Of a DNA stretch of 64,000 nt, positions 36,292 to 61,227 are shown one piece after another (position 1 is the stretch's first letter; every line of letters begins with the position of its first letter). This DNA comes from an uncultured Phycisphaerales bacterium (GTDB taxonomy: Bacteria > Planctomycetota > Phycisphaerae > Tepidisphaerales > Tepidisphaeraceae). The notes under the pieces are model-generated. The model was not told the origin of the DNA. It worked only from the letters and a program-made list of their open reading frames with translations, and did not search any database. The DNA is taken from NCBI GenBank assembly GCA_963844715.1, contig CAWJPJ010000008.1, positions 768,001 through 832,000 of the forward strand, in the 5' to 3' direction. A program made the position numbers and the translations under genes.

Positions 36292-36424
36292 GATGCCGCG
36301 CCCCCGGGGCTGAGCGGGATGGCCGCGTGGAGAGGGGCTTTCGCGGGGTTTTATAGGCGATCTGTCTGAAGTGGGGCTGGCTCTGGCTTATGGGGGGCGG
36401 GTGGTCTAGAATGTAATTATAGAT

Positions 36425-36498
<74 letters not shown>

Positions 36499-36509
36499 TT
36501 CCAGATGAC

Positions 36510-36584: not shown

Positions 36585-36616
36585 CGGCCTGGGAAACATG
36601 GTACTCGCCAAGGAGT

Positions 36617-36631
36617 GTTCAACACTTGTTC
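36617..36631 (+). promoter_or_regulatory. GTTC-N7-GTTC box upstream of integrase
   Basis: gttc-aacactt-gttc, within the hairpin ccaagga...tccttgg abutting the GGAGG RBS. Confidence 0.5.
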
Positions 36632-36645
36632 CTTGGAGGTGGCCA

Positions 36646-37851
36646 GTGGCCTATTTGTTCAAGCGCGGAAGCGTCTATTACGTGAAGTTCTACGTCGCCG
36701 GAAAGCAGAAGGAGAAATCCCTCGGCACCGGCGTCTACCAGATCGCCAAAGAGAAGCAGCGGTTGTTCGAGTCGGCGCGGGCCAGAGGTGAAAGCCTTCC
36801 GATGCCGACGCGCACGCCCATCGCGGAGATCGTGACCGCTTACGTCGCGGCCATCCGCACCGCCAAGACGGCCAAGAGCGCTCAGACCGACATCTATTAT
36901 CTCCGCGATGTGTTCGGCCCGATTTGCGACGCTCTGAAAATCACGAGCCGCAAGGCGTCGGAGAAAACCCGCAAGCGCCAATTGAAAGATGACGTGGACC
37001 GCCGGCACAAGGCACCGGTGATCGAAGCCGACTGCTTCGAGGCCATCACGACGGCGCAGATCGTCGAATTCGTTTCGGGCCAGGTCGCTCGCCGTGGCCT
37101 CGCGCCCAAGACTGCCAACCGCTATCGTGAAATCCTCACCCGCCTTTTCAATTGGGCCGTGGAGCAAAAAGGCGTGCGGCTGCCGGGCGACCGCAATCCC
37201 GCCTCCAAAGTGGAACGCTATCGCGAGTCGGCGCCGAACATCCGCTTCCTGACGCTCAAGCAAATCGACGAGCAACTTGGCGCGCTGGCCGACAATCTCA
37301 AGCTCCAGGCAATGGTGGCCACGCTGATCTTCGCCGGTTTGCGGCGCGAGGAGTTGTTATGGCTCACGCACGACGACTTGGATTTGGACACCGGGAAACA
37401 CGGCCTTATCCGAGTTCGGGCAAAGGAAATTCATGGCGAGTCTTGGGAGCCGAAGACGAAGAAGAATCGCGCCGTGCCGGTGAGCTCGCGGCTTCGCCAT
37501 TACCTCGACAAGTGGCAACTGAAAATGGAAAAGAGCAAAGGGGCGTGGATTTTCCCAAGCCCCGAAGGGAAGAGATGGGACCCCGACAACTTCTCCCAGG
37601 ACTTGCGCGCAACAAACGAAAACGCGAAATTATCCTGGGGTTGTCTGGATTTCCGCCATACGTTCGGCAGCCAACTCGCGATGAAGGGTGAGAGCCTTTA
37701 CAAAATCAGTAAGCTCATGGGAAACTCGCCGGAAATTTGTAGTCGGCATTACGCGGCTCTGATTCCTGAGGAAATGGGGGATTCCGTCGAATTCGGCGCA
37801 ATAAAAGATTCGATGATATCGCCTTCCCATGGGACAGCCATGCGAGCATAG
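36646..37851 (+). CDS. int: Tyrosine recombinase/integrase
   Basis: GTG start after GGAGG; AGLRREE (R), KTKK (K), DFRHTFGS, LMGNS and RHYA (Y). Confidence 0.93.
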   Translation: MAYLFKRGSVYYVKFYVAGKQKEKSLGTGVYQIAKEKQRLFESARARGESLPMPTRTPIAEIVTAYVAAIRTAKTAKSAQTDIYYLRDVFGPICDALKITSRKASEKTRKRQLKDDVDRRHKAPVIEADCFEAITTAQIVEFVSGQVARRGLAPKTANRYREILTRLFNWAVEQKGVRLPGDRNPASKVERYRESAPNIRFLTLKQIDEQLGALADNLKLQAMVATLIFAGLRREELLWLTHDDLDLDTGKHGLIRVRAKEIHGESWEPKTKKNRAVPVSSRLRHYLDKWQLKMEKSKGAWIFPSPEGKRWDPDNFSQDLRATNENAKLSWGCLDFRHTFGSQLAMKGESLYKISKLMGNSPEICSRHYAALIPEEMGDSVEFGAIKDSMISPSHGTAMRA

Positions 37852-37931
37852 ACCCGTTCCCGGCGTGCAAGCCAACATTGCTTGTGAACAGGCCGGAAGC
37901 TATTCTCCGTACATTTACCGAACACGCGGAT

Positions 37932-39272
37932 ATGGCAAAGCGGCTTACAAACTCACAATTACTCGGCCAGCAAGGCATGGACTTAGTCTCGACTCGAGTT
38001 CATGAAATGGGTTTCGCCTGGCATCCAACGAACGCCTCCCTCGATGCGGGCATCGACGGTTACATCGAACTCCGCGATCCAAATTCGGGTGAGGCCAAAA
38101 ATGCGATCTTGCTGGTACAAAGCAAGGCGAGATCCACTCTTGAACGGGAAACTGACGAAACCTTTGAATTTACATGTACACCCGAAGATTTGAGCTACTG
38201 GCTTCAAGGAACAGCACCCGTCTTGCTCATCGTGTCCAAGCCGAAAGAACAGCGCGCGTGGTGGGTATCGGTTAAGGATTACTTCCGTTCCCCTGACGCC
38301 AACAAGAGCCGACGGGTTCGCTTTGTCAAGCATGACCAGGCTTTCGACAAATCGGCGGCCACGTCACTGATAGCATTAGCGGCCACTTCGGGCAGCGGCG
38401 CATATTTCCCGCCGATCCCACGGCAGGAAAAATTGCTGTCGAATCTGTTAGCCGTCACTCGGTCACCCACCCGAATCTACTGGGCGCAAACGCAATTCAC
38501 TGATCGCAACGAGGTTTGGGACGAGCTAAAGAAACGCGTCGAATGGCCTGACCGCGAATGGTTCCTTTACGAACAGAAGATTTATTCGATCCACGACCTT
38601 CACGACGATCCATGGGCGAAGGTTTGTGACATCGGAACCATCGAGACAGCCGACGGAAGGGAATGGAGCCGCTCCCGCGACCGCGACATTCAGCGCATGT
38701 TCGTCCGCTTCCTTAACGAGTGCTTGCACTCGCGCGTGAGCCCGATGGGATTGCGCTTTACCGGCGCGTCAGAATGTTTCTACTTCAAAGCCACGAAGGA
38801 CCTGACAACCCGGCGAAAATCGTATCGAAGTCTGAGGGTCAAAGCGTCGCGGGACGTTTTCAAAGCTTATCCATCAAAAGCTGACCCAACGCGCATTGCG
38901 TATTACCGTCATGTTGCCTTCGAGCGTCGTTTTCGCAACTACGACGGTAAGTGGTTCTTGGAGATTAACCCGACTTATGTCTTCACGTCCGATGGGCATG
39001 AACTCCACCCATTTCGGGAAGAACTGTTGTCGAAGATAAAGACGATAGAGGGAAACGCCGCAGTTCTTGGGCTTGTTGTCATGTTCGCTGACCTGCTTCA
39101 TGACGATGAGGGATTATTTACCCGGGCGTATCCCCACCTGGGCTTCGGATGGCTCGAAACCGTGGAATTGCCAGTTGGCATCGACGACAAGGCGTGGCTC
39201 AATCGCGACGAGCTAAAGCTGCCCGAGTCTGACGAGGAAGACTTCACCCAAACTTTATTTGACCGATGTTAG
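37932..39272 (+). CDS. DUF4365-like PD-(D/E)xK nuclease fused to APAZ (short pAgo effector, DREN-APAZ-like)
   Basis: N-terminal DAGIDGYIEL..LVQSKA..DLSYW; C-terminal EKLLSNLL, YYRHVAF, WFLEINPTYVFT.DG and KTIEGNAAV, typical of APAZ; overlaps the pAgo start. Confidence 0.8.
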   Translation: MAKRLTNSQLLGQQGMDLVSTRVHEMGFAWHPTNASLDAGIDGYIELRDPNSGEAKNAILLVQSKARSTLERETDETFEFTCTPEDLSYWLQGTAPVLLIVSKPKEQRAWWVSVKDYFRSPDANKSRRVRFVKHDQAFDKSAATSLIALAATSGSGAYFPPIPRQEKLLSNLLAVTRSPTRIYWAQTQFTDRNEVWDELKKRVEWPDREWFLYEQKIYSIHDLHDDPWAKVCDIGTIETADGREWSRSRDRDIQRMFVRFLNECLHSRVSPMGLRFTGASECFYFKATKDLTTRRKSYRSLRVKASRDVFKAYPSKADPTRIAYYRHVAFERRFRNYDGKWFLEINPTYVFTSDGHELHPFREELLSKIKTIEGNAAVLGLVVMFADLLHDDEGLFTRAYPHLGFGWLETVELPVGIDDKAWLNRDELKLPESDEEDFTQTLFDRC

Positions 39273-40810
39273 CATTTTTTCTTGAAGAACCCGAGTTGGA
39301 GTTTGCCCGAGGCGGGCGCCACATCGACATCCGATTCGGCCTCAGCACGCTCGGGCCGCTGGATCGGACAGGTGAACTGGCGCCGCGAGCGATCCGCGTC
39401 GGCGTGGTGGGTGACGCGGAGAGCGTGGACGGTTTTCAGCAATGGATTACCAAATGCCGCGGCGGCATCGAGGCCAAGCCGTCGCCTCTCTCAACGCTTT
39501 TTCCATCATTCCCAGGTTTTGGCACGACCGGAGCCTTCTGCGATTTTGTCTGCACCCCACAATTGACTTCCAGTATTTCACGCAGCGATCTAGATGAACT
39601 TGCGGCCATAGAACCAGCGCCTTTACTTATCGAGCAATCCGTCACCCGCTATTTGAATGAAGCCGCTAGCTTGATCGAGAACACCAACGCGGACGTCATT
39701 GTCTGTATTCTGTCACCGACCTTGCTTAAAAAGATCGACGTTCAAAGCGAGCATCGTCGCGGCCCGCGCTCGCGGAAAATTGCCTCAACCGCGACGACCG
39801 CCGACAAAGTCGTATGGCACGATTTGCTGAAGGCTCGGGCGATGAAACTTCGCAAACCGATCCAGGTCACTCGGCCCGGAACATTCGGGGGGCGTGTGCA
39901 GCGGTATAAGCAGGACGGAACGAGTAGTCTTGAACTTCAGGATGAAGCAACCCGCGCCTGGAACTTTTTCAGCGCGCTCTATTATAAGGCAGGCGGAATC
40001 CCATGGCGGCTTGTGAGACAGACAAGCGACCTGGCAACGTGTTACGTTGGTATAAGCTTCTTTGAATCCAAGGATCACGATGCGTTGCAGACGAGCGTAG
40101 CCCAAGTATTTAACGAACGGGGTGAAGGCGTGATTGTCAGAGGCGGTCCGGCGACAATCGACAAAGATGATCGCACGCCCCATGTTCGGGATGAAGACGC
40201 CGAACAATTGCTGTCTCGTGCATTGGAACTTTACCGTACCGTTCATCGCACCATGCCGGCCAGGCTTGTGTGCCATAAGAGTTCTTATTTCACCGCTGGT
40301 GAAAAAGCCGGCTGTCGAGCTGCGGCAAAGGCAGCGCGCATCGATGGCGCTGACCTCATTTCAATCCGCAAGAGTATGACCCGGTTATACCGGAAAGGTT
40401 CGTATCCCCCGCTTCGCGGCACGGCTGTCAACGTATCGGACATGGAAACATTGCTGTACACGCAGGGGAGCATCGACTTTTATCGGTGTTATCCGGGCCT
40501 TTACGTCCCACGGGCATTTTCCGTGCAATGGGACGATGTGGAACAGAGCCAACGAAAATTGCTTGAGGAAATTCTCGCGCTTACGAAAATGAATTGGAAC
40601 AGCACGCAATTCGTAAACTCTGAGCCGATCACACTGGCGGCCTCGCGCAATGTTGGTGACATTCTTCGGTATTTGGGAAAGGACGACCCGATCGAAGCAC
40701 GCTACTCGTACTATATGTACGCGCCCGCACCTCATATCGTTAGCGGCATTCATCAAAATGCGAGCGACCGTTCCGGCGGACTTGCATTTCCGGAACGGTC
40801 GCTGCGATAA
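39266..40810 (+). CDS. ago: Short prokaryotic Argonaute (MID-PIWI, catalytically inactive)
   Basis: EEPELEF, GPLD, FPGF, HDLLKA, QDEATRAWNF..ALYYKAGGIPW, CYVGISF, AQVFNERGEG, HKSS, YPPLRGT, YPGLYVP, LTKMNWN, PITL and RYSYYM. No N/PAZ domains. Confidence 0.93.
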   Translation: MLAFFLEEPELEFARGGRHIDIRFGLSTLGPLDRTGELAPRAIRVGVVGDAESVDGFQQWITKCRGGIEAKPSPLSTLFPSFPGFGTTGAFCDFVCTPQLTSSISRSDLDELAAIEPAPLLIEQSVTRYLNEAASLIENTNADVIVCILSPTLLKKIDVQSEHRRGPRSRKIASTATTADKVVWHDLLKARAMKLRKPIQVTRPGTFGGRVQRYKQDGTSSLELQDEATRAWNFFSALYYKAGGIPWRLVRQTSDLATCYVGISFFESKDHDALQTSVAQVFNERGEGVIVRGGPATIDKDDRTPHVRDEDAEQLLSRALELYRTVHRTMPARLVCHKSSYFTAGEKAGCRAAAKAARIDGADLISIRKSMTRLYRKGSYPPLRGTAVNVSDMETLLYTQGSIDFYRCYPGLYVPRAFSVQWDDVEQSQRKLLEEILALTKMNWNSTQFVNSEPITLAASRNVGDILRYLGKDDPIEARYSYYMYAPAPHIVSGIHQNASDRSGGLAFPERSLR

Positions 40811-40835: not shown

Positions 40836-41045
40836 TCATCCCTGCCGTTTGGTCTCGAATTCTTCCACCTCCTTTCGGTTGTACCGCACAATTCCGTTGC
40901 GCCCTTCGCCAAGACAAAGCCGAGTCAGGCCAGCGCGCCGGGCGATTCGGTCAACGCTTGAACGCGAGCAGCGCCACCGCTCCTGAAGCTCTTTGGGCGA
41001 CAAATATGGCGAAACTGCCGGAGCGTTCACTTCAATCGTCGTCAT
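40836..41045 (-). CDS. Excisionase/AlpA-like HTH protein
   Basis: YLSPKELQERWRCSRSSV..VRYNRKEVEEF. Confidence 0.75.
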   Translation of the reverse strand: MTTIEVNAPAVSPYLSPKELQERWRCSRSSVDRIARRAGLTRLCLGEGRNGIVRYNRKEVEEFETKRQG

Positions 41046-41084
41046 GGCGTCACCGAATCTCACGACCAGCCGCACTTCGCGTCT

Positions 41085-43734: not shown

Positions 43735-43858
43735 ATGCTGCAAAAAACGCAGACGAAAGTCATCGACAACCTTCGCAGATTGCGGAAGCGCGTGCGATCC
43801 TTGATCGGTGCGGGCGCAATTCCTTTGTTCATTCCGTGCGTTTATGATCCCCGGCAGG

Positions 43859-46800
43859 ATGTCCAACCCCTTTTTTGAAAAACCGATCCTCAGCTCTCCC
43901 TACTCGTGCCCAACACGGCATTGGGAGCTAGACATCCACGGTCAGCCAACCCAAAAGATTCTCGAAAAGCGGCGGCGGGCGGAGTTCATCACGCCCATTC
44001 CTAAGCCGCGAAAACGCAAGGATTCAGCCAACCAGCAACAGATTATTTTCGACGAGGGAAAAGGGCTTTCGACAAAAGAACAGCAATACGATCCCACGTC
44101 AATCATCAATCAGCTTCGTCAGCAAGTTGACCAATGGCGGACTTTAACTAACCCCAATGATTGGCAAGTCACGCCCGAGACTGCGCGTTTGATCCAGCAC
44201 TGGCGGCATCATAAATTCAACGGTATCCGGCCTTTCTTCTGCCAAGTGGAGGCCGTTGAGACGGCCATTTGGATTACCGAAGTAGCGCCTCACGCGGGGA
44301 AGTCGGGCAAGGCAATAGTTGAGCACTTGGCAAACGCCAACAACGACGCCAATCCAGGACTCATGCGCCTCGCCTTAAAGCTGGCGACTGGTGCCGGCAA
44401 GACCACTGTAATGGCGATGCTCATAGCGTGGCAAACGATCAATGCAGTGCGCCGACCGGCAGGCAAACACTTCACGCGCGGTTTTCTGGTCTGCGCACCC
44501 GGCTTGACGATCAAAGACCGCTTGCGTGTTCTCCAGCCCAACGACCCCGACAGCTACTACGCCAGCCGTGAACTCGTTCCTGGCGACATGCTCGACGACG
44601 TAAACCGGGCCAAGATCGTTATCACCAACTACCACGCATTCAGGCTGCGCGAGCGTATCGAACTTTCCGCCGGCGGCCGCGCATTGCTTCAAGGCCGCGG
44701 CGGCGATGAACTCAACACGCAGGAGACTGAAGGCCAGATGCTCCAGCGCGTGATGCCCGACCTGATGGGAATGAAAAACATTCTGGTCATCAACGATGAA
44801 GCGCACCATTGCTACCGGGAAAAACCAAAAGCCACCGACGAAGAGGATTTGAAAGGCGACGAACGGAAGGAGGCCGAGAAGAACAACGAGGCCGCCCGCC
44901 TTTGGATTTCCGGTCTGGAAGCCGTGAACCGCAAGCTCGGTCTCAGCCGCGTTATTGATTTGTCCGCGACACCATTCTTCCTCCGCGGCTCCGGCTACGC
45001 CGAAGGCACTTTGTTCCCTTGGACGATGAGCGACTTTTCCCTTATGGATGCCATCGAATGCGGCATCGTCAAACTGCCGCGCGTCCCCGTCGCTGAAAAC
45101 ATCCCTGGCGACGAGATGCCGATGTTCCGCGACCTTTGGGAAAACATCCGCAAAGACATGCCCAAGAAGGGGCGCGGCCAAGGCGAGGAGCTCGACCCAC
45201 TGAAACTTCCCACGCGCTTGCAGACGGCGCTGCAAGCACTTTATGGCCATTACGAGAAGACATTTAAGCTTTGGCAGGATACGGGCATCGCGGTTCCGCC
45301 GTGCTTTATCATCGTTTGCCAGAACACCGCAATCTCGAAACTCGTTTATGACTTCATCTCCGGCTTTCATCGCAAGAACGATGACGGCACCACTACCCTT
45401 GAAAACGGACGCCTCGCGCTATTCCGCAATTTCGATGAAACCACCGGCAACCCGTTCCCGCGCCCGAATACGCTCCTAATCGACAGCGAGCAACTAGAAG
45501 CTGGCGATGCGCTCGATGACAACTTCCGCGGTATGGCAGCCGACGAAATTGAACGCTTTCGACGCGAGATCGTGGAGCGCACCGGCGACGCCCGCGCCGG
45601 CGACAACATCACCGACCAGGAATTGCTCCGCGAAGTCATGAATACCGTCGGCAAGCCCGGACAGCTTGGCGGTGCGATCCGCTGCGTCGTGTCTGTGTCG
45701 ATGCTGACCGAAGGATGGGATGCCAATACTGTCACGCACGTACTCGGCATTCGCGCGTTCGGCACTCAACTCCTGTGCGAGCAGGTAATTGGTCGCGCTT
45801 GCGTCGCCAATCTTATGAGTTGAATGAAGAAGGGCTGTTCAATGTGGAATACGCCGATGTCTTCGGGATTCCGTTCGACTTTACCGCCAAACCTGTCATC
45901 GCGCCGCCGCAGCCACCGCGCGAAACAGTTCAGGTGAAGGCCGTGCGCCCTGATCGCGATGCACTGGAAATCCGATTCCCGCGTGTCGAGGGCTATCGCG
46001 TGGAACTTCCCGAGGAACGCCTAACGGCCGATTTCAACGGCGACTCCATCTTGGAATTGAGCCCGGACCTCGTTGGTCCATCCATCACGCGCAACTCCGG
46101 GATCATCGGCGAAGGCGTTGATCTTGGCCTCAAACATTTGGGAGACATCCGGCCATCAACGCTGGTTTTCAACCTCACTCAACGGTTGCTCTACACAAAA
46201 TGGCGCGACCCCGGTGAAGAGCCGAAGCTCCATCTTTTCGGCCAGCTTAAGCGCATCACCAAGCAATGGCTCGACACCTGCCTCGTGTGCAAAGGCGACA
46301 CCTACCCGGCGCTGCTCATGTACCAGGAGTTAGCAGACACGGCATGTAACCGCATCACAGCAGCCATCACTCGTCAATTTCAGGGCACACGCCCGATTAA
46401 GGCGCTGCTCGATCCATACAATCCCGCCGGCTCGACGAGCCACGTTCGGTTCAATACGTCAAGGCCCGACCGTTGGGAAACGAGTTCAAAATCCTGCCAT
46501 ATCAATTGGGTTGTTTTGGATAGCGATTGGGAGGGGGAGTTTTGCCGCGTGGCGGAATCTCATCCGAAAGTCCGGGCCTATGTGAAGAACCACAATCTCG
46601 GGCTGGAAGTGCCGTATCGCTACGGTTCGGAAACACGGAAGTATTTGCCTGACTTTATTGTGCTGGTTGATGATGGTCACGCGGCGCGGTCCGACGGAAA
46701 ACCCGACTTGCTCCACCTTGTCGTGGAGATCAAGGGCTACCGACGCGAAGACGCGAAAGAAAAGAAGTCCACGGTGGAAACCTATTGGGTGCCTGGCGTG

Positions 46801-46947
46801 AACCACCTGGGCGCATATGGCCGGTGGGCCTTCGCCGAGTTCACAGACGTTTACCAGATCCACGCCGACTTTGCTGCCAAGATCGCGAGCGAGTTCGATA
46901 AAATGATTAAAGCGGCTACCGAAACACCCACGACCGAGAGCAAATAA
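43859..46947 (+). CDS. res: Type III-like restriction endonuclease/helicase Res subunit (frameshift near 45800)
   Basis: ATGAGKT, DEAHH, LSATP, MLTEGWD and EQVIGR; C-terminal YLPDF..VEIKG nuclease. Confidence 0.9.
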
Positions 46948-46948
46948 C

Positions 46949-49762
46949 ATGGCGAAGAAATCGGCAGCCTCCAAAACCGTAGAATCTCTCAAGCACGGCG
47001 CCGATAAGCGGAAGAATATTCCAACCGCGGAGTTTCAATCCGTTTTGAGGCAAGAGGCACAGCACCCCATCCGTCTCGCCTATGAGCGCCGCAATCGCGA
47101 CCTCGATCCGCAACTCGTATGGCGCGGAAAGGACGAGCAGGATTGGAGCAATCTGATTGTTCACGCTCCGCCACTTTACATCCAAGAGAAGGTCCACCCT
47201 AAAGTCCTCATCGAAGACTTGCTGCGTCAAACCAGAGATATCCGAGCGCAGGAGCCTGGCCATCAGATCGACCTCTTCGCCGATTTCAACGGCATCGCAA
47301 ACGACGCCGACAAGACCGAGTTCTATCAGCACGACCAGAATTGGAGCAACCGCATGATCCTGGGCGACTCGCTCCAGGCGATGGCAAGTCTCGCCGAGCG
47401 CGAAGGCCTGCGCGGTCAGGTGCAATGTATCTATCTCGACCCACCTTACGGCATCAAGTTCAACAGCAACTTCCAATGGTCCACCACGAGCCGTGACGTC
47501 AAGGATGGCAATGCGGGCCACATCACCCGCGAACCGGAGCAGGTGAAAGCGTTCCGCGACACTTGGCGGGACGGCATCCACAGTTATCTCACCTATCTGC
47601 GCGACCGCCTCACGGTCGCTCGCGATCTTCTCACCGATTCCGGATCGATCTTCGTTCAAATTGGACAGGATAATTGTCACCTCATCCGTTCTTTATTGGA
47701 TGAAGTTTTTGGTGCCGAGAATTTTATTTCGCAGATCGTGTTCTCGAAGACCGCGAGCGCGACATCGGAATATCTCGCTGGCACATACGATGTCCTCGTT
47801 TTATACGCAAAATCGCACGAGAAATTGAAATATCATCAACCCCTGACGCTGAAGCAACTTGGGGGGTTGGGTGGCAGTGCATATAAAAGAGTCCGGCTTC
47901 CAAATCTCTCGGAACGAGCGCTCACCCCCGAGGAGCTTGCCGGCCAGCAGGAGCTTCCTGCGGATTCGCGTGTGTTTCGTATCGACAACCTCACGAGTCA
48001 AAGCGTTGGGCGCGACAAGGGTGAAGGAGCAGCTTCGTGGTTCCCCGTGGAGTTCGAGGGGCAAACGCTTCGCCCCTCTGACAAGGTGCGATGGAAAACC
48101 AACGAACAAGGAATGAGTCGTTTGAAAATGGCGTCTCGCCTTAGTTCGACGGGCAAGGGCTTATATTATGTGCGCTACTTTCAAGATTTCGCCGCATTTC
48201 ACGAGGACAATGTCTGGGCCGATACCGGGATAGCGGGCTTCGCCTCTGAGAAGCGATATGTTGTCGAAACCTCTGAGAAAGTCGTTCAGCGCTGCCTCCT
48301 CATGACGACAGACCCCGGCGATCTCGTTCTCGATCCAACTTGCGGCTCCGGCACGACCGCCGCCGTCGCCGAACAATGGGGCCGCCGTTGGATTACCATC
48401 GACACTTCCGCGTCGCATTGGCACTTGCTCGCGCCCGCATAATGGGTGCGCGATATCCATTTTACTTTTTGGCCGATTCTCGCGAAGGACAGCTTAAGGA
48501 AGCCGAAGTCGCGCGGCACGTCGCCAAGTTCGCAACCAACACGCGGGAATATCCGTCATGGCTTTGTCTACGAACGTGTGCCGCACATCATGCTAAGTTC
48601 TATTTCCAGCAATGCGGAAATTGATGTTATATGGAGCAAATGGCAGGCCATCTTAGACCCGTTGCGCAAGAAACTGAGCGCCGCGCTCAGGACACAATTG
48701 CATGATTGGGAGATTCCGCATGAAGCGGACGCGAAGTGGCCGGAATCAGTGAGGGCACTGCATGGCAACTGGTGGCAGGCGCGCATTGCACAGCAGACGG
48801 AAATCGACAAGTCGATCGCTGCCAAGGCGACGTTTGATTACCTCTACGACAAGCCGTACGCCGACAAGAAAACGGTAAGGGTATCTGGCCCCTTCACCGT
48901 CGAAAGTCTGAGTCCCCACCGAGTGTTGGGCGTGGATGAAAACGATGACTTGATTGATCCTCTAAAGACGCACAATCCCGACTTCGGCGCAAAGCAATCC
49001 TTTGCTCAGATGATCATCGAGAATCTCAAGACGGCTGGTGTCCAACAGGCTCACAAGGAGGATAAAATCACCTTCATCGCCCTCGCTCCTTGGCCGGGCG
49101 AACTGGTCTGCGCCGAAGGGCGCTATATGGAACGCGAGACCGAGAAGCGTGCCGCCATTTTCATCGGCCCGGAATTCGGCACTGTTCAACGTGCCGATCT
49201 AGTCGCCGCGGCCCGCGAGGCCGGCGATGCCGATTTCGATGTGCTGATTGCCTGCGCCTTCAACTACGAGGCCCACACTACGGAGTTCAATAAGCTAGGC
49301 CGTATCCCCGTGCTCAAGGCCCGTATGAATGCGGACCTCCACATGTCGGACGACCTCAAAAACACCGGCCAAGGCAACCTCTTTGTCATTTTCGGCGAGC
49401 CGGACATAACTCTTCTCAACGAGAAGGATGGCAAACTTCGTGTGAAGGTAAATGGCGTGGACGTATTCAAACCTCAAACGGGCGAAGTTATTAGCGACAA
49501 TTCCGATGGCATCGCCTGCTGGTTCATCGACACCGACTATAACGAAGAGAGTTTTTTCGTCCGCCACGCGTACTTCCTTGGGGCCAACGATCCTTACAAC
49601 AATCTAAAGACGACTCTCAAAGCCGAAATCAACGCTGACGCTTGGGCTACGCTGAACAGTGACACTTCACGACCTTTTGAAAGACCCAAGAGCGGCCGCG
49701 TAGCCGTGAAGGTAATCAATCACCTTGGCGATGAAGTCATGAAGGTATTCAAGGTAACGTGA
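46949..49762 (+). CDS. mod: Site-specific DNA amino-methyltransferase (Mod-like, beta class; frameshifts near 48410-48515)
   Basis: DPPY precedes VLDPTCGSGTT, with a variable central region and a long C-terminal extension. Confidence 0.9.
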
Positions 49763-51832
49763 TGGAATTCCGCATTGCCGACACTTTCACGGACAGCCTT
49801 GCTCGGCTAACCGGCGACGAACAGAAAGCCGTCAAGATGACGGCTTTCGATTTGCAGATTGATTCGTCCGGCGCAGGAATGAGCTTCCACAAGCTCGACA
49901 AAGCAAAAGACAAGAAATTCTGGTCGGTGCGCGTCAGCAGCGACATTCGGCTGATCGTCCATAAAAGTGAATCCAGTCTCTTGCTTTGTTACGTGGACCA
50001 TCACGACAAGGCATATCAATGGGCGGAACGGCGCAAGTTGGAGACGCATCCAAAGACCGGTGCCGCGCAATTGGTGGAGATTCGCGAGACCGTCAAGGAA
50101 ATCGTGGTTCCTACATACGTGCAGGCGGAACTCCCTGTGGCGGCCAAGCCCCTGCTGTTTGCGACGCTCGGTGACAATCAGTTGCTTGGTTATGGAGTGC
50201 CGCCGGAATGGCTGGCGGATGTACGAAAAGCCGATGAAGACACGTTATTCGCGCTGGCCGACCATTTACCAACGGAGGCCGCCGAAGCATTGTTGGAGTT
50301 TGCGACCGGTGGTAAACCGCAGGCGGTCGCACCGGCCGTCAGTGGAACCGATCCCTTCGCTCATCCCGATGCTCAACGCCGATTCCGCACGATGAAGGGC
50401 GTTGAGGAGTTGCAGCGCGCGCTAGAATATCCCTGGGATAAATGGACGGTCTTCCTGCACCCCGAACAGCGGCAGTGGATCGAACGGGACTACAGCGGCC
50501 CCGCGAGAGTTTCCGGGTCTGCGGGCACTGGAAAAACCATCGTGGCCCTTCACCGCGCTGTCCATTCGCGCGCACAATCCAGATGCGCGAGTTGTGCTAA
50601 CCACTTTTTCGGGCATTCTGGCCAATGCGTTACGAACCAAACTTAAGCGACTCATCAGCAATGAGCCGCGATTGGCCGAACGACTGGAAGTGTATTCCAT
50701 CGACGCCATCGGCCTTCGGCTTTTCAAATCCCACATCGGCCAGCCGCAGATCGTATCGCAGGACAAGATGCGCGAGATCGTGGAGAAGTCGGCCGCGGAG
50801 GTGGGAGGCCACAAGTTCGGCCTTCCATTTTTGCTTTCCGAATGGGAACACGTCGTCGATGCGTGGCAATTGCACAGTTGGGAGGCGTATCGCGACGTGA
50901 GGCGGCTGGGCAGGAAAACCCGTCTTGCCGAGCCGCAACGCGCCGTGCTTTGGTCGATCTTTGAGCGTGTCGGCGCTCGGTTGGCGGCTGACAATTTAAT
51001 TACCTATTCCGGCTTATTCAGCAAACTTGCAACCATCATCGCCGCGAGTAAGCATCCGCCGTTCGACTTTGCCGTGGTGGATGAGGCACAGGATATCAGC
51101 ATCGCTCATCTGCGTTTCTTCGCGGCGGTTGGTGGTAATCGCCCAAACGGCCTTTTCTTTGCGGGCGACCTTGGGCAACGTATCTTCCAGCAGCCGTTTT
51201 CATGGAAGGCGTTGGGGATCGATATCCGTGGTCGCGCGCGTACCCTTCATGTGAACTACCGGACCTCACACCAAATCCGAATGCAAACCGACCGCCTATT
51301 GGGCCCGGAAGTGTCCGATGCCGATGGCAACACGGAGGAACGAGACAGCACCGTTTCGGTATTCAATGGACCGCCGCCCACTATTCAGGTCGTCAAAAGC
51401 CAACAGGAGGAAATCAAGGCGGTCAGTCAATGGATCTCAGCTCGCCATAAAGAGGGCGTGTTGCCTCACGAGCTGGGAGTATTTGTGCGATCTGTGGCGG
51501 AGTTGGATCGGGCGCGAGCAGCGGTCAAAGATGCTGGGCTGTCGTTCAAAATACTTGACGACCAGGTTGAAACGGTGAGCGGCCAAGTGGCAATCAGTAC
51601 GATGCATCTTGCCAAGGGTTTAGAATTTCGCGCCGTCGTGGTGATGGCCTGTGATGACGAGATTATTCCGTTGCAGGAACGAATCGAGACGGTGGCCGAA
51701 GACGCAGATTTGGAAGAAATCTATAATACGGAACGCCATTTACTTTACGTCGCGTGTACTCGCGCACGGGATCATCTTCTCGTTACGAGCGTCGATCCGG
51801 CATCAGAATTTCTCGACGACATGGGGACGTGA
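49762..51832 (+). CDS. UvrD-like SF1 helicase with N-terminal RelE/ParE-like domain (frameshift near 50570)
   Basis: N-terminus F..SLARL..FHKL..FWSVRVSSDIRLIVH; GSAGTGKT, VDEAQD, GDLGQRI, NYRT, TMHLAKGLEF and LYVACTRA. Confidence 0.85.
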
Positions 51833-52164: not shown

Positions 52165-52874
52165 GTGCAGATAACGACTGATAAGGATGAGCTGCGCCGC
52201 GCCCTTGCTGAAAAGCAAGTCTCGCACGTTCGTTGCCGCAGCTTTCGCACGGGCTTGGAGGCATTCGATGAAATTGCACCGAACGGCGCGTTTCAGGGTG
52301 GCGCAGTGCATGAATTGCTCTGGGCACGGCAATCGACCCATCCCAAATCGCTCGCATTACTGCTGGCAAAGGCGGCGCAGAAAAACGGTGGCGCGATTGC
52401 TTGGAGTGATCCAGAGCGCGAGCTTCACCTGCCCGCCTTGTCGGCGGCAGGAATCAACCTTCGGAATCTGGTTCTGCTGCGCTGCGCGAATCGCGCGGAC
52501 CAGCTTTGGGCGCTGGCCGAATGCTTGCGCTGTCGTGGGGTCGGCGCGACCGTCGCGTTCATTCAACGTCTAAGCCAGATCGAGGCGCGGCGGTTGCAAC
52601 TTGCCGCCGAGCGTGGGGGCGGCGTGGGCCTTTTCATGCGCCCTTATGCGCCGGGGATAAGCAACTCTTACGCAGCCGCCACGCGCTGGCTTATCCAGCC
52701 CGCGCCCGGCAGCGACCAAGTGCAACGATGGAGCGTGGAACTTCTTCACGGCCACGGAGGACAGGTCGGAAAAGTCCTTCTACTGGAGGTGGACCGTGAG
52801 ACACGTGCTTTGCGCATATCTGCGCCACTGGCCGATCGACCGGCTGCGCCGGCACGGCCCGAGCTACGGCGTAA
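52165..52874 (+). CDS. imuA: ImuA (RecA/SulA-like)
   Basis: GAVHEL, LWALAECLRC, ARRLQLAAERGG and AAATRW; the apparent fusion to imuB results from an indel near 52850. Confidence 0.85.
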
Positions 52875-54291
52875 ACCGCTGGTCCTGATCGAAACCAGCG
52901 GCAACCGGCAGACCATCGTTCACGTCAGCCCGGAAACGCCGGCCGATATTTATCCGGCAATGCCGCTGGCAGCGGCAAGAGCACGTCATGCAGCGATGTT
53001 GGATTTTCCGGCGACGCCGGCCGCGGACCTGCGCTCCCTCGAAGCGATGGGACACTGGCTGTTGCGATTCAGCCCAGGCGTGTGCGTTTATCCCCCGTCA
53101 TCCCTTTTTCTCGATGCTACAGGTCTCGAGCGCCTGTACGGTGGCCTTGAGAACTTTCGCCGTCGAGTTGCCCAAGCATCGCTTCGCTGCGCATGACCGC
53201 TGCCGTGACGATTGCGCCAACGCCGGGTACGGCGTGGGCGCTGGCCGCGTTTGGAAGGAACGGATCGCACATCGTCACAAATGAACACGTACTTCCCGCG
53301 CTCTCGCCACTTCCGCCAGAGGCGTTGCGGCTGGACAGCAAGACGGTTGGCGTCTTATCAGCTTTGGGCGTGCGGACGATTGACTCGCTGCTTCAACTTT
53401 CTCGCAACGATCTCGCTGTTCGCTTCGGACCGGCGATCCTGATGCGGATCGACCAGGCGACCGGCACTGCGCCCGAACCTCTGACATACTTGGTTCATCG
53501 CTCGCCCATTCGGGCGACCCTCGAATTTGAAGGCGCTATTGAATCGCTCGACGCGATTCATTTCGCGGTGCAGGAGCTTACAAGGCAAATTGCCGCGCAG
53601 CTTGCCGCGCGTGGTCAGGGAGGCGCGGGAGCTACGCCTGACGTTCCGCCAGCCGTATGCATCGCCTGTCGAAAAAGTTATCCGGTTGGTGCGCCCGTGT
53701 CGCAACGAATCGGCACTGTTAAAGCTGATTTGTTGCGCGATTGAAAATCTGGAAGCCAGCGAGGGTTTTGTGGCCGCGACGTTGGCCGTCACTGTCGCTG
53801 AACGGTTGGGCGACGAGCAGGCCGCATTGATCGGAGGCGAGGAAGAACGCGATGCCGCCGAATTGGATCATTTGGTCGAGCGGCTGCGCGCACGGCTGGA
53901 TCGCGGCGTGGATTGGGGAGAATTGCTCGAATCCAATCTCCCTGAAAACGCCAGTCGATGCCGAGACACTGCCGGTAAGGCGGATGCGCCCGGCGCGCAC
54001 GGCGCGGTTGATCTTCTTCGCCCGCTCCGGCTGCTGCGTCAGCCGCGTTCGATCAAGACAATCGTTCGACCCTCGGAGAGCCGCGATGGCGAGCCCGTAT
54101 CTTTCACTGACTACGGCGAAGTTCATAGGCTCGACCACATCCGGGGACCGGAGCGAATCACCGGCCAATGGTGGAACGGGCGGTGGAAGACCCGTGACTA
54201 CTTCGATGTTCTGGATACCGCCGGCGATCGGTATTGGATCTTCCGCGTCCCGCAATCGGGACGATGGTTTTTGCACGGGATATTCGAGTGA
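52796..54291 (+). CDS. imuB: ImuB, inactive Y-family polymerase (several frameshifts)
   Basis: HWPIDRLRR, RFSP, LFLDATG..LYGG, IAPT..AWALA, GPERI..WW, RDYF and WFLHG. Confidence 0.88.
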
Positions 54292-54307
54292 TGGCGGAAA
54301 CTCATCT

Positions 54308-57300
54308 ATGCCCGAAGCGGCCAATCCCAAACATCGTCCCGTCGTTCCGCCGCCAACATCGGCGCACGGCACATCGTCCTATCCTTACGCGGAATTGGAC
54401 GTCACAACAAACTTTTCATTCCTGCGCGGCGCGTCGCATCCCGATGAATTGGTCTATCGCGCCGCCGAGCTTGGATATACCGCCATTGCCGTCACAGATA
54501 TAAACAGCGTTGCCGGCGTCGTCCGCGCCCACCAGGCCGCGAAGGATGCCAGGATCAAACTTTGTGTCGGAGCGCGCCTGCGCTTCGTCGATGCGCCCGA
54601 TGTTCTGGTGTGGGTTGAGAATCGCGCAGGCTACGCCAGCCTGTGCCGTCTGCTGACTACGGGCAAACGCAGGACTGAAAAAGGTTCCTGCATTCTTCGT
54701 CTTCAAGATTTGCTTTCGGTCCCAAAGGGCCTTTTAGCGGCGCTGGTGTGCCGGTCCATCGATCCACAAGTCGGCGAACCCGATCCAGCCGCGATCGACA
54801 CCGCAGCAGGAGCGTTGCGGGATGCCTTCGGTCGAGGATTGTCTATCGCGGCGTCGCGCGTCTTGGACCCTTGGACCGAATGATGCTGCGCCACGTCGAA
54901 TCCGTCAGCCGTACTTACGGCGTTCCGCTTCTGGCCACCAATCAGGTCCACTATCACGATGAGCATCGACAAACGCTCCAGGATGTGCTCACTTGCGTTC
55001 GCCACGGCTGTACGATTCAGGACGCGGGATTCCGTCTCTTTCCGAACGGCGAGCGATTCATCAAGCCGCCGGAAGACATGCACCGCTTGTTCAGCGACCT
55101 TCCGGCCGCGCTGCGAAGGACGGTCGAGATCGCGGAACGCTGCACTTTTCGCTCGATGAGCTGCGCTACGAATACCCGGATGAGATCGTGCCGGCAGGCA
55201 AAACGCCGGCATCCTATCTGGCGGAACTGTCCTGGGCCGGCGCCGCCGGTCGCTATCCGCAGGGCATTCCTGAAAAGGTCCGCCAGCAGATCGGTTATGA
55301 GTTGACGCTGATCGCGGAACTCAAGATCGAGCCGTATTTCCTGACGGTTTACGATCTTGTCCGCTTCGCCCGCTCGCGCGGGATTCTCTGTCAGGGCGCG
55401 GCTCCGCCGCGAATTCCGCCGTCTGCTATTGCCTGGGAGTCACGTCCGTTGATCCCAATCGGATTGACGTGCTCTTTGAGCGATTCGTCAGCGCCGCCCG
55501 CGACGAACCGCCTGACATCGATGTTGATTTCGAGCACGAGCGCCGCGAAGAAGTGATCCAATATCTTTATGACAAATACGGCCGCGAGCGCGCGGGCATG
55601 ACAGCGGAAGTCATCAGCTATCGCGGTCGATCCGCCGTAAGGGACGTAGGTAAGGCAATGGGATTGGGCCTTGACGCGGTGGATGCACTGGCCAAACGCC
55701 TTGAGGGCTGGTCCAGCGGCGCACCGCTGGATGAACAGGTTCGAGAAGCGGGATTGGACCCCACCGACCGCACCGTGCGGATGGTCGTCGCGCTGACGCG
55801 CGAACTGCTCGGATTTCCGAGGCATTTATCGCAGCACGTTGGCGGAATGGTTATGACACGCGGGCCGTTGTGCGAGTTGGTTCCCATCGAAAACGCCAGC
55901 ATGGCGGATCGCACAGTGATCGAGTGGGACAAGGACGACATCGACGCCATCGGCATTCTCAAAGTGGACGTGCTGGCGCTAGGAATGCTTACGGCGCTGG
56001 CCAAGGGGATGAAGCTCATTAACGACACGCATCCGACGCAGCCGCCGATCGAGCTTCACACGATTCCGCCCGAAGACCCCGGCGTGTACGTGATGGTCAG
56101 CGACGCCGACACCATCGGTGTCTTTCAGATCGAATCGCGGGCGCAGATGTCGATGTTGCCGCGACTGCGCCCTAACAAGTTTTATGACTTGGTGATTGAG
56201 GTCGCGATTGTGCGGCCCGGTCCAATCCAGGGCGATATGGTGCATCCCTATCTGCGCCGCCGCGACGGGATTGAGCCGGTGAGTTTTCCCAAGCCCGAAT
56301 TGGAGGCGGTGCTTGGCAAGACGCTCGGTGTTCCATTATTTCAGGAACAAGCGATGAAGATGGCGATGGTCGCGGCGGGATTCACCGCCGGAGAAGCCGA
56401 CCAGTTGCGCCGCGCGATGGCTGCATGGCGACACGCGGGGAGCATCGAAAAGTTCCAGCAAAAGATGATTGATGGAATGCTCGCCAACGGCTACGAACGA
56501 GAATTCGCCGAGCGCTGCTTCAACCAGATCAAGGGGTTTGGCGAATACGGCTTTCCCGAAAGCCACGCCGCTTCTTTCGCGCTGCTTGTCTATGCCAGCG
56601 CGTGGATCAAACGGTATTACCCGGCGGCCTTCTGCTGTGCGCTGCTCAACAGCCAGCCGATGGGATTTTATGCGCAGCACAGATCGTGCGAGACGCGCGA
56701 GAACATGGCGTGGAAGTGCGAGCGATCGAGGTGAATCGGAGCGATTGGGATTGCACTTTGGAGAGTGCCGTCGATTCGCCGGCGTCTGTGCCCACGGCGG
56801 ACAAGCGGACTTGGGGAATCGGTGGTCCCGCCATGCGGCTTGGCTTCCGCTTGATAAAGGGACTACAAGCCGCCCACGCGCAGCAAATTGTCGAGTGCCG
56901 AGGTCAGCACGGCCCGTTCCGCTCAATCGACGATTTCCATGCGGCGACGGAGCTTCCGGTTTCCGCCGTTGCAAAACTATCTGAGGCCGACGCCTTCGCG
57001 TCCCTACCCAGATCGCGCCGGGTCGCATTGTGGGAAACGCTGGCGCTGCCAGAGGAGCGAGGTCCACTGGCCATGCCGCCAGCGCGAAAGTGCCGCGCCC
57101 GCACTTTCGCCGATGACCGTGGGCCAGGAGATTCATGCCGACTACGGAACGACCGGCCTATCGCTCAAAGGACATCCGGTTCAGCTCATCCGAACGGAAT
57201 TGACCCGCCGCAATGTGATTCCCGCCGCCGAGGTGTGGAATCGCCCGCATGGAAGGTGGGTGAGCGTGGCCGGCGTCGTCATTATTCGCCAGCGCCCCGG

Positions 57301-57535
57301 CACCGCCAAAGGAATCGTGTTTGAAACGCTGGAGGATGAGACAGGCATCGTGAATTTGATTATCCGGCCCGACGTTTACGACCGTTGCCGGAATGCCGCG
57401 AGGAGTGCTTCCGTGCTTCAAGCCGATGGTTATGTCGAACGCCAGGGCCAGGTGCAGCACGTCATGGCCGTGCGATTGCATGACCTTACCGAGTTGGTTT
57501 CCAACTGCTCCTTGCGCTCGCGTGATTTTCATTAG
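54308..57535 (+). CDS. dnaE2: Error-prone DNA polymerase DnaE2/ImuC (about 5 frameshifts)
   Basis: [64 protein letters not shown] and SRDFH C-terminus. Confidence 0.93.
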
Positions 57536-58519: not shown

Positions 58520-59200
58520 TCACTTTGGCGCTTGCTCTGGAGCATCAACCAGAATTTTTGCTGCTGCGGCCATGCCCAGCGAGACTACCTCACGGCGAGG
58601 AATCCGAATCTTAACCGCCTCCGCCGCCGAGTCTCGCTTGCCGACGGTAACAATTGAGCCAGGTTTCAGACCGCTTCGCTCGATAAATCGTAAGAATTCC
58701 GGCTCTTGATCCACCACTCTAACGATTTGTTGAGCAATGCCCACGGGGCAGTCGGCGAGGCTCATCAACTGGCGTTCGTGCAGATGCCCCTTGGGAGTCG
58801 GGATCGGGTCGCCGTGCGGATCGGCCGTCGGATGCCCCAGCAAAGCATCCATCCGCTCCAGCACTGCGGTCGGATATTGCGTGTTCCAGGCTGTCGGCCT
58901 CGTCATGCACGGCCGACCAATCCAAGCCCAGCATATTGACCAGAAACAACTCCACGAGCCGATGCCGCCGCAGGACGTGCAGGGCCAATTGTTCGCCGCG
59001 GCGGGTCAGTTTCACTCCGCCTCTCGGCTCGTAATCGACCAGTCCTGAATCCGACAAGGCCTTGACCATGGAGGTGGCGGTCCCCGGCACGACCCCCATG
59101 CGGCCGCCAGACGGCCCATCGACACCAACGTTCCCCCTTCGGCGGCGCGCTGCTCCAAATAAAGTTGCTTCAAGTAGTTCTCAACCGTGCTTGTCGCCAT
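58520..59200 (-). CDS. mntR: DtxR/MntR-family metalloregulator with FeoA domain (2 frameshifts)
   Basis: TVENYLK, LRRHRLVELFL, HDEADSLEH and DPHGDPIP. Confidence 0.9.
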
Positions 59201-59277
59201 GAGCGCCGTCCTTTTGCAACGTAAAAGATTATCTGCCGATCAACCGATTGACAAATGATATGGTATTCGATATTTTT

Positions 59278-59295
59278 ATTTTGAGTAATCAAAAT
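59278..59295. promoter_or_regulatory. Palindromic operator, putative MntR box
   Basis: attttga-gtaa-tcaaaat downstream of TTGACA, between divergent mntR and mntH. Confidence 0.55.
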
Positions 59296-59330
59296 TCGGT
59301 GATGGAGCGACCGAATAGGATTGAAGGCAT

Positions 59331-60760
59331 ATGATGCAAAGCCGAAAGACTGGACCACTGAATTATGAGACGATTCCGCCAGCAGTTAGCCACGCTGGGC
59401 ATGTTTCGCTGGAAGGAATGCACGGCACGGTGGCGGTTCCCCACCACGAGGCCGCCTTCTGGAAGCAATGGCGCGCCTATGTCGGGCCGGCGCTGCTGAT
59501 CAGCATCGGTTACATGGACCCCGGCAACTGGGGCACCGATCTTTCCGGCGGCGCTTCGTTCAAATACGACCTGCTCTGGGTGGTCGCCGTCGCCAGCCTG
59601 ATGGCCATCTTTCTTCAAGTCATCTCCGCCCGGCTCGGGGTGGTCACCGGCAAGGATCTGGCCCAGTGCTGCCGCGACTGGTATCCCAAGTGGACGCGCT
59701 GGCCCAACTGGCTGCTCTGCGAACTGGCGATCGGGGCCTGCGATCTGGCCGAAGTGCTCGGCAGCGCCGTCGCGATCAACCTGCTCACCCACAACCACAT
59801 TCCCATTTTCTGGGCGGTCATCATCACCGCCGGCGACGTGCTGCTGCTGCTGGCCCTGCAACGATACGGCATGCGGAAAATCGAGGCGGTGGTGCTGGTG
59901 CTGATCTCGACGATCGCCCTCTGCTACTTCATCGAGATTTTCGTCATCCCGCAGACCAAGCCAAGCTTTCTGGAGATGGGGCATGCCCTCTTCACTCCGG
60001 GTTTCCGGCACGCGGGGATGCTGTACGTGGCGATCGGGATCATCGGCGCGACGGTGATGCCGCACAATCTCTATCTGCATTCGGCATTGGTGCAGAGCCG
60101 CAAGCTTCAGAAGGACGAGCGCGCGATCCGCACGGCCATCCGGTTCAACACGATCGACTCGGCCGTGGCGCTTGTCCTCGCGTTCTTCGTGAACGCGGCC
60201 ATTCTGGTGCTGGCGGCCATGGTGTTCTACGGAAAGACCAGCGTCACCGTGGCCGGCGGGCAGTCGTCCCATTCAACGACGATACCGACTGGATTCGGGT
60301 CGCGTACTTGACCCTCGCGCCGCTGCTGGGCGTTGCCGCCGCCAGCCCGCTGTTCGCGATCGCGCTGCTGGCCAGCGGCCAGGCCAGCACCATCACCGGC
60401 ACGCTGGCCGGCCAGGTGGTGATGGAAGGCTTCATGCACTGGAGGCTCTCGCCCTGGGTCCGCCGAATCATCACCCGGCTGCTGGCCATTATCCCCGCGG
60501 TCCTGATCATCGGCATCCGCGGCAATGGCAGCGTCAACGACCTGTTGAACCTGAGCCAGGTGGTGCTGGCCCTGCAATTGCCCCTGGCGATGTTCCCGCT
60601 GCTCCATTTCACCAGTTCCCGCAAGCGGATGGGCAAGTGGAAGAGCGGCTGGTTCCTGCTGATCGCCGGCTGGGGCAGCGCGATCCTGATCACCGCACTG
60701 GACATCTACGGCTTGCCGGATGCGTTCAAACAGGCTTGGCAGGTCATCGTCGGAGGATAA
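59331..60760 (+). CDS. mntH: Nramp divalent metal transporter (frameshift near 60265)
   Basis: YMDPGNW, GATVMPHNLYLHS and TGTLAGQVVMEGF. Confidence 0.93.
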
Positions 60761-60805
60761 ACGCGCAAGGCATCGACCTGCGGATCATAGACGGCAAGGA
60801 ATATC

Positions 60806-61218
60806 ATGTATCAAACCATTTTAATAACGCTCGATGCCACGCCAACGGATCGCGCGATCATCAAGCATATCAAGGCACTGGCGGCGATCATGAAGAGCCG
60901 CATCGTGCTGCTTCATGTGGCCGACGGCTGGGCGGCGCACCTTGGACCGGATGCGGTCAGTCCGGAGATCACCGAAGACAAGGCCTATCTGGAGCAGGTC
61001 CGAGAGGAATTTGAATCGGCCGGCATTCCGGCGGATGCCTTTCTCGCCTACGGCGAGCCAGTGAAGGAGATCGTCCGCTGGGTCCATGAGAAACACTGTG
61101 ATCTGGTCGCGATGAGCACCCACGGACATCGCTTCCTGGCCGATTTTTTTTGGGCGCAACGGCCAGCCGTGTGCAGCACAGCATCGACGTCCCCGTACTT
61201 TTAATCCGAGCTAGATAG
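60806..61218 (+). CDS. Universal stress protein (frameshift near 61150)
   Basis: ILITLD, LLHVAD, GEPVKEI, DLVAMSTHGH and VPVLLIR. Confidence 0.88.
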
Positions 61219-61227
61219 GAACCCATC

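Follow-up and report, generated by a model that had tools for sequence, protein, structure and literature searches.

Whether a gene pair that resembles a published defence system is that system, and whether it still works, is the question raised by a locus in a 64 000-nucleotide stretch (the window) of an uncultured Phycisphaerales bacterium (contig CAWJPJ010000008.1 of assembly GCA_963844715.1, genome G000 below). The pair encodes an effector with a DREN (DUF4365) nuclease domain and an APAZ domain, followed by a short prokaryotic Argonaute (pAgo), and a first-pass annotation made from the sequence letters had described it as a SPARDA-like short pAgo defence operon in a planctomycete island. 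Our study found the pair to be SPARDA proper, and we put the probability at roughly 0.8 that it is a working abortive-defence module, carried as swappable cargo by an integrative conjugative element at a tRNA-Met gene.

SPARDA identity was assigned from full-length matches of both proteins to solved SPARDA chains, and the matches lie well above chance level. Residues 1–438 of the effector match the DREN-APAZ chains of the PDB (9qbq, 9qbp and 9jsb) end to end (E 1e-45 to 1e-52), and pAgo residues 6–483 match the SPARDA pAgos (E 1e-82 to 1e-87). Among profiles, Pfam DUF4365 was found above its cut-off at effector residues 13–149 (E 7e-26), PADLOC Aga_REase-PNTD1-PNTD2 covered effector residues 1–436 (E 1.5e-147) and the 455-position PADLOC pAgo_I model covered pAgo residues 4–484 (E 8e-160), with Pfam Piwi below its cut-off (E 0.0014). 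The pAgo was modelled over residues 1–484 from a 91-row alignment (pLDDT 90.3; a single-sequence fold gave pLDDT 31 and was discarded), and the top ten Foldseek matches of this model were all SPARDA chains (TM 0.87–0.89, with 0.88 to 9qbp_B, at 32–35 % identity), ranked above SPARTA and SPARHA. The motifs quoted in the first-pass annotation were located at pAgo residues 239 (YYKAG), 261 (VGISF), 337 (HKSS) and 439 (LTKMNWN), and GISF and HKSS, which we take to be the first and third positions of the PIWI DEDX tetrad, align with equivalent motifs, likewise non-acidic, in the inactive pAgos of Nba, Xau and Eae. These motifs bear out the inactive PIWI domain. Profile, PDB and fold matches extended to MID and PIWI only, which bears out the lack of N and PAZ domains and rules out a long pAgo; SPARTA, SPARSA and SPARHA are ruled out by the DUF4365 effector domain. 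The N-terminal nuclease and APAZ-like C-terminus proposed for the first gene were likewise recovered, as were the two overlapping open reading frames (ORFs), which share 7 nt (Table 1). An alternative upstream start (TTG at 37878) would give an effector of 464 amino acids (aa); the profile and PDB matches start at the ATG. A promoter scan returned 1 site against 2.4 expected, none of them upstream of the gene pair.

Table 1. Positions of the gene pair and of the neighbouring features of the element within the window
Feature	Position	Strand	Evidence
DREN(DUF4365)-APAZ effector gene, 446 aa from ATG	37932..39272	+	Pfam, PADLOC, PDB chain matches
Short pAgo gene (MID + inactive PIWI), 484 aa by family consensus	39266..40720	+	PADLOC, PDB, Foldseek
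pAgo ORF as assembled, 514 aa	39266..40810	+	ORF call
Read-through stretch past expected stop, +30 residues	40718..40810	+	Homologue and locus comparison
tRNA-Met (CAT), the last 43 bases of which form the element's attachment site	36424..36499	+	ARAGORN, Rfam
Tyrosine integrase of the element	36598..37851	+	Pfam Phage_integrase E 1.5e-16
79-aa helix-turn-helix (HTH) gene, putatively excisionase-like, right border of the slot	40836..41075	-	Pfam HTH_17 E 6.4e-5, under cut-off

The residues expected of a functional pair are in place. Conservation was counted in the best 120 of 413 effector homologues and the best 120 of 3890 pAgo homologues. Effector residues D42, Q63 and K65 align with D41, Q60 and K62 of NbaSPARDA, whose mutation is reported to abolish or impair activity (10.1101/2023.06.08.544223; PMC12205087), and they are kept in 118, 119 and 113 of the 120 effector homologues, respectively, with Arg replacing the Lys in a further 6. 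The position of the Xau nuclease residue E37 (10.1101/2025.04.08.647717) is D38 here and is D or E in 118. The 5'-phosphate pocket of the pAgo is formed by H185-K189-Q200-N233-K241, and H185, K189, Q200 and K241 are invariant in all 120 pAgo homologues. Compared with the close copy at locus L001, 234 synonymous and 49 amino-acid-changing codons were counted among 920 (one unread stretch was skipped), and these differences point to purifying selection.

How the module would act can be proposed by analogy with NbaSPARDA, XauSPARDA, EaeSPARDA and TmuSPARDA, as described in the portions of PMC12205087, PMC12774872, 10.1101/2025.04.08.647717 and, for the tail, 10.1101/2023.09.23.559129 that are drawn on here. 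The pAgo and the DREN-APAZ protein would pair as a heterodimer kept inactive by the acidic APAZ tail, and the pAgo would load short cellular RNAs as guides. Pairing of the guide with single-stranded invader DNA would lead to filament assembly, four DREN domains would meet and cut DNA without sequence choice, and the cell would die or stall, blocking the spread of the plasmid or phage. An Asp/Glu-rich acidic tail is seen at the C-terminus of the effector, and an acidic autoinhibitory C-terminal APAZ tail is described as a trait of the S2 clades (10.1101/2023.09.23.559129).

The literature consulted names five characterised SPARDAs, those four and CmeSPARDA, the last of them known here by name only (10.1101/2025.04.08.647717). 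XauSPARDA and EaeSPARDA (PDB 9qbq, 9qbl, 9qcc and 9qbp; 10.1101/2025.04.08.647717) have the same gene order of DREN-APAZ and inactive short pAgo, match at E 7.5e-52 and 2e-51 (effector) and E 4.4e-86 and 1e-87 (pAgo) with a model TM of 0.87–0.89, and have in common with the window pair the D/Q/K nuclease residues and the Gln and Asn that read guide base 2 (Xau Q222 and N230, conserved as Q225 and N233). They differ in the pocket motif (N-F-R, against V-W-H here), in Xau N179 (V183 here), in a helix-1 Glu that is absent here and in their proteobacterial hosts, as opposed to a probable planctomycete. NbaSPARDA (PDB 9jsb, 9jsz, 9jt2, 9vx1 and 9vx6; PMC12205087, PMC12774872) also matches over the full length (E 1.4e-45 and 9.9e-83) and shares the nuclease triad, K187, K240 and S447 (K189, K241 and S446 here) and the tetramer interfaces, as far as these are predicted here, but differs in its adenine pocket, in R183 and in E16. 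TmuSPARDA (TmuRE-Ago of Thermocrispum municipale; PMC10810196), likened to the window pair by its published description rather than by sequence, also combines DUF4365-APAZ with a short pAgo and has the Q-x-K motif and a non-proteobacterial host. In SPARTA (TIR-APAZ) and SPARHA (HNH-APAZ), too, an APAZ protein accompanies a short inactive pAgo (E 5e-37 and 5e-60; Foldseek TM 0.71–0.83 to the pAgo model), but the effector is TIR or HNH instead of DUF4365. The pair is a further SPARDA member, from a planctomycete branch, of a system whose mechanism is already published.

Several observations weigh against a working module of the published kind. The guide pocket is unlike that of all three solved SPARDAs, and the position of Nba E16 is occupied by M16, with Glu in none of the 120 effector homologues. 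XauSPARDA and EaeSPARDA are reported to give no robust protection against 12 phages (10.1101/2025.04.08.647717), and because of this ‘anti-phage’ is less sure than ‘anti-plasmid’ as a description. The pAgo frame, as assembled, runs past the end of the family; the contigs from two studies (X3 and X4) in which the stop is restored are from relatives, at depths of 2.9 and 3.3, and a single contig may be wrong. Reads of the window's own strain were not found among the runs searched, the best of which held 0.23 of the words, and the RNA runs held 0.05–0.10.

The place of the pair in the genome bears on what it protects against. It sits between the integrase of the element and the excisionase-like HTH gene, and its GC content (0.541) is lower than that of the element (0.576) and the flank (0.597). 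The 3' 43 bases of the tRNA-Met gene recur (blastn) 80 kb and 116 kb further on, at G000:C8:884389 and 920483, each copy followed by another integrase of the same family, giving three elements in tandem. This tandem array spans G000:C8:804456-920525 (from 36456 in the window), its elements parted by tRNA 3' copies, and the two further integrases share 66 % and 46 % identity with the first. The 80-kb first element is an integrative conjugative element, a call made because it holds conjugation genes (TraG/VirD4, T2SSE-family ATPase, TrbE, TrbL and VirB8 families) plus other cargo, namely a type I restriction system, a type III-like methylase (PADLOC) and an error-prone polymerase cassette.

Of 61 related genomes, the host's own included, 13 have the integrase, and a tRNA-Met gene or its 3' part adjoins 17 of 20 loci of the integrase family. 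Behind the integrase, these loci, several of which are incomplete at their ends, carry a TIR-TM gene (L053, E 6.5e-61), a DrmD-like helicase (L055, E 2e-105), ATPase-TIR (L059), NACHT (L069), RES (L070), DUF6338 (L058) and PIN (L066) genes, a transposase (L063) and a TraG piece (L065); Pfam gave no match for three further cargo genes (L060, L064 and one of L066) or for two of L056. The HTH gene is conserved in L001, L053 and L056 and closes the slot in the latter two as it does in the window, although the L056 observation rests on an unpublished genome (G004). The slot swaps its cargo, and relatives hold other defence genes there. A conserved stretch behind the pAgo gene was considered as a non-coding element and rejected, since it is this small HTH gene, and an Rfam scan returned the tRNA only. 

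Riding in a conjugative element's cargo slot, the pair might chiefly benefit that element by excluding rival plasmids and elements rather than phages, a reading compatible with a working module and differing only in the target. XauSPARDA and EaeSPARDA, with their lack of robust phage protection, do act on plasmids (10.1101/2025.04.08.647717), but NbaSPARDA restricts T5 (PMC12205087; PMC12774872) and the slot in relatives holds genes of phage-defence type, and we regard plasmid exclusion as the main benefit as a tentative proposal with somewhat less than an even chance.

Whether the module is intact turns on the end of the pAgo gene. The first-pass annotation had taken both frames to be frameshift-free and the second to end at 40810, and this has to be revised: the family ends at M484 (40717 in the window), where the window reads TAC (40718-40720) and continues for 30 residues. 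In all 120 listed pAgo homologues, the protein ends in an aromatic-aromatic-M motif (Y-Y-M here). A motif resembling T/S-K-x-N-W-N was found in 159 of 162 loci examined, and the pAgo ends 41–50 residues past it in 157 of the 159, including 93/93 that bear a DREN gene; the spacing is 75 in the window, and the other two of the 159 are partial matches at which no DREN gene was seen. None of the 93 DREN-bearing loci has a natural extension. The close copy at L001 has TAA at the expected stop, and in X3 and X4 one contig each lacks the base at 40720 and carries an extra C after 40723, so that the codon becomes TAG. Runs X2 and X3 also contain joints that jump from the integrase to around 40770; these have unknown letters in between and were not used as evidence. 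A free C-terminus after the motif is therefore absent as assembled and present in close copies, and the assembly is error-prone: rpoC, which two congeneric genomes carry as a single frame (1486 and 1494 aa), is split in G000, and frame switches were seen in 5 of 8 conserved genes compared (10 in 16.3 kb) and, with a second reference set, in 3 of 5 (6 in 12.8 kb), the two sets sharing three genes and hence not being independent. At this rate (about 0.5–0.6 switches of frame per kb of conserved gene), the 2.8-kb operon would be expected to contain one or two errors, and no other lesion was seen in it.

On these comparisons of sequence, the 30-residue extension is probably an assembly error affecting one base of the stop codon. 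Every listed homologue lacks the tail, which rules it out as a new domain. If the read-through were real, the strain would hold a recently disabled SPARDA, with a pAgo C-terminus unable to close the guide pocket. The assembled sequence itself reads through, a toxic defence gene could plausibly be lost, the strain's own reads are missing from the runs searched, and a 29-residue C-terminal tag is reported to render XauAgo non-toxic (10.1101/2025.04.08.647717), because of which a system with a genuine extension would probably be dead. Set against the frame-switch rate, which affects even rpoC, the stops retained in close copies and the lack of any extension among the DREN-bearing loci, a disabled system is unlikely.

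A working SPARDA in this branch would nevertheless differ from its solved relatives in its guide pocket, a difference that the first-pass annotation had passed over. The three solved SPARDAs have the MID motif N-F-R-x-x-x-K, with V-W-H in place of N-F-R here, making the pAgo an HK rather than an RK type; both types are canonical for short pAgos, and HK has long been known (PMC6299218). In NbaSPARDA, the adenine at guide base 1 sits in W159, F182 and W201 and is read by N181 (PMC12205087; PMC12774872), and N179 of Xau reads the 5'-adenine (10.1101/2025.04.08.647717). In the HMMER alignment, Nba W159, N181, F182, W201 and R183 become D158, V183, W184, R203 and H185, so that the adenine-reading pocket (an Asn, a Phe and two Trp) with its RK motif was not found; D158, H185 and R203 are invariant in the 120 pAgo homologues. 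A pAgo tree was built from 53 rows, none of them a characterised protein; rows shorter than 380 aa, one duplicate and the locus of the window itself were left out. The window is placed within a W-H/R clade of 7 rows (support 100/100), two of which are identical. The named members of this clade are all Planctomycetota, and the clade lies separate from the mostly proteobacterial F-R/W rows. His is not rare at this position: of the 90 DREN-bearing loci in which the motif could be read, a sample biased towards the window's query, 50 have it.

Two further groups of short pAgos were observed alongside. DREN-linked pAgos with an L-H/L pocket (L007, L008, L011, L131 and L146) form a type of their own, with named members in the Acidobacteriaceae; they make up 20 of the 90 loci by motif, and L008 and L011 are two copies in one genome record. 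Loci L015, L016, L017 and L019 hold related short pAgos, the partner of which has an APAZ match but no DREN match in the locus.

The guides of the window pAgo need not start with A, and its preference may differ. That this planctomycete SPARDA branch, with a rebuilt first-base pocket (D158, W184, H185 and R203, without the adenine-reading Asn) and a DREN domain lacking the helix-1 Glu, would load guides other than 5'-AU is a proposal that could go either way, and the pocket variant has about even odds of altering guide preference at all. TmuSPARDA requires a 5'-U guide and favours a 5'-OH (PMC10810196), showing that preference varies in the family, so a different preference here would be variation within the family and not a new principle.

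The helix-1 Glu itself is named as a member of the Nba catalytic site (E16) in PMC12774872, whereas PMC12205087, in the portion consulted, names only D41, Q60 and K62 as active-site residues. It is present in 18 of 19 F-R/W loci, mostly proteobacterial, and in 0 of 19 other loci including the window. Four copies of DREN residues 1–152 were predicted to form a tetramer with a score of 0.95 (the best of 3 controls scored 0.00), with at least 93 % of contacts in common between runs and pLDDT of at least 92. The closest contacts are helix 1 on helix 1 (residues 13–24) and strands at 29–37, and both interfaces (helix-1 and strand-1/2) match those reported for Nba (PMC12205087), although most of the Nba polar contacts (E13, R20, Q29, D31 and R33) are different residues here. 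In the calibration, which this job does not resemble, 20 of 30 solved pairs and 1 of 23 single chains attained the score mark; like complexes are already solved, and the model shows likeness to them rather than binding and may simply reproduce them. That the pair is intact but works differently in this branch, the DREN domain being a weak or narrower nuclease (for instance, on single-stranded substrates only) or being activated without filaments, draws on the missing Glu and the replaced polar contacts but is very improbable, given that the three essential nuclease residues are kept, that PMC12205087 does not count E16 among them, that both Nba interfaces are predicted and that the actinobacterial TmuSPARDA likewise oligomerises and cuts DNA (PMC10810196; 10.1101/2025.04.08.647717).

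The planctomycete island of the first-pass annotation corresponds to the integrated conjugative element, and its planctomycete part fits by relatives: the closest named ones are Phycisphaerae and other Planctomycetota, evidence that is indirect for the host as the gene is mobile. A genome of the same family but another genus (G179) holds the integrase and SPARDA at 87–88 % DNA identity, with backbone blocks shared further on, and the pAgo query found none in G002 (same genus, 95 % complete). Near-identical relatives were counted once. A pAgo match was found in 16 of 301 genomes sampled from the host's class, its own included, and among the other 15 a DREN gene lay in the 1.5-kb flank in 5. Such a scattered distribution is in keeping with horizontal transfer. 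No close copy was found among viral contigs (16 loci, best 45 % identity) or metagenome contigs (80 of 117 kept, best 52 %), and the matches in 93 plasmid records were all <60 % identical. The suggestion that the host context is undescribed holds in so far as no publication on a planctomycete SPARDA was found in the literature searched, but this negative is weak, as subscription journals and host-listing supplements lay largely outside that search; PMC13477220, in the portion consulted, names Planctomycetota but not in connection with SPARDA.

Other parts of the element and genome were noted in passing. Behind the HTH gene, the close copy (L001:7938-11861) has an ATPase and two unannotated genes where the window has a regulator, with no PADLOC match and one weak AAA_16 match; this is a second cargo slot and a possible unnamed defence system. 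Window 43808-51832 holds a type III-like restriction helicase, a large methylase (PADLOC MTase_III, in two halves) and a toxin-like/UvrD helicase; all three genes are broken into two ORFs, for which assembly errors are the probable cause. The error-prone polymerase cassette lies at 52165-57535 in several pieces (IMS and DNA polymerase III alpha matches), and a second, inverted cassette was seen near G000:C8:926000-930000 (DNA match to L098). A manganese-type metal uptake cluster with an Nramp transporter, split by frame changes, occupies 58520-62187 of the element and presumably includes a DtxR-like regulator and a universal-stress-like gene. Elsewhere in the genome, G000:C6:952626-956065 is a dense array of 24 tRNA genes.

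In summary, the significance of this locus is modest, in that the system, its mechanism and its structures are published and PADLOC profiles fit both genes closely. In practice, the pAgo gene cloned as assembled would probably yield a false negative, and split genes elsewhere in this genome are not to be taken as pseudogenes without a check. The locus also offers a probable case of SPARDA passing from one genus to another within a defined defence slot on a conjugative element, and what is new is a set of named, testable pocket substitutions in a branch without a solved member. Should these substitutions alter guide preference, a different RNA pool would be sampled and the guide range of SPARDA-based DNA detection would be widened.

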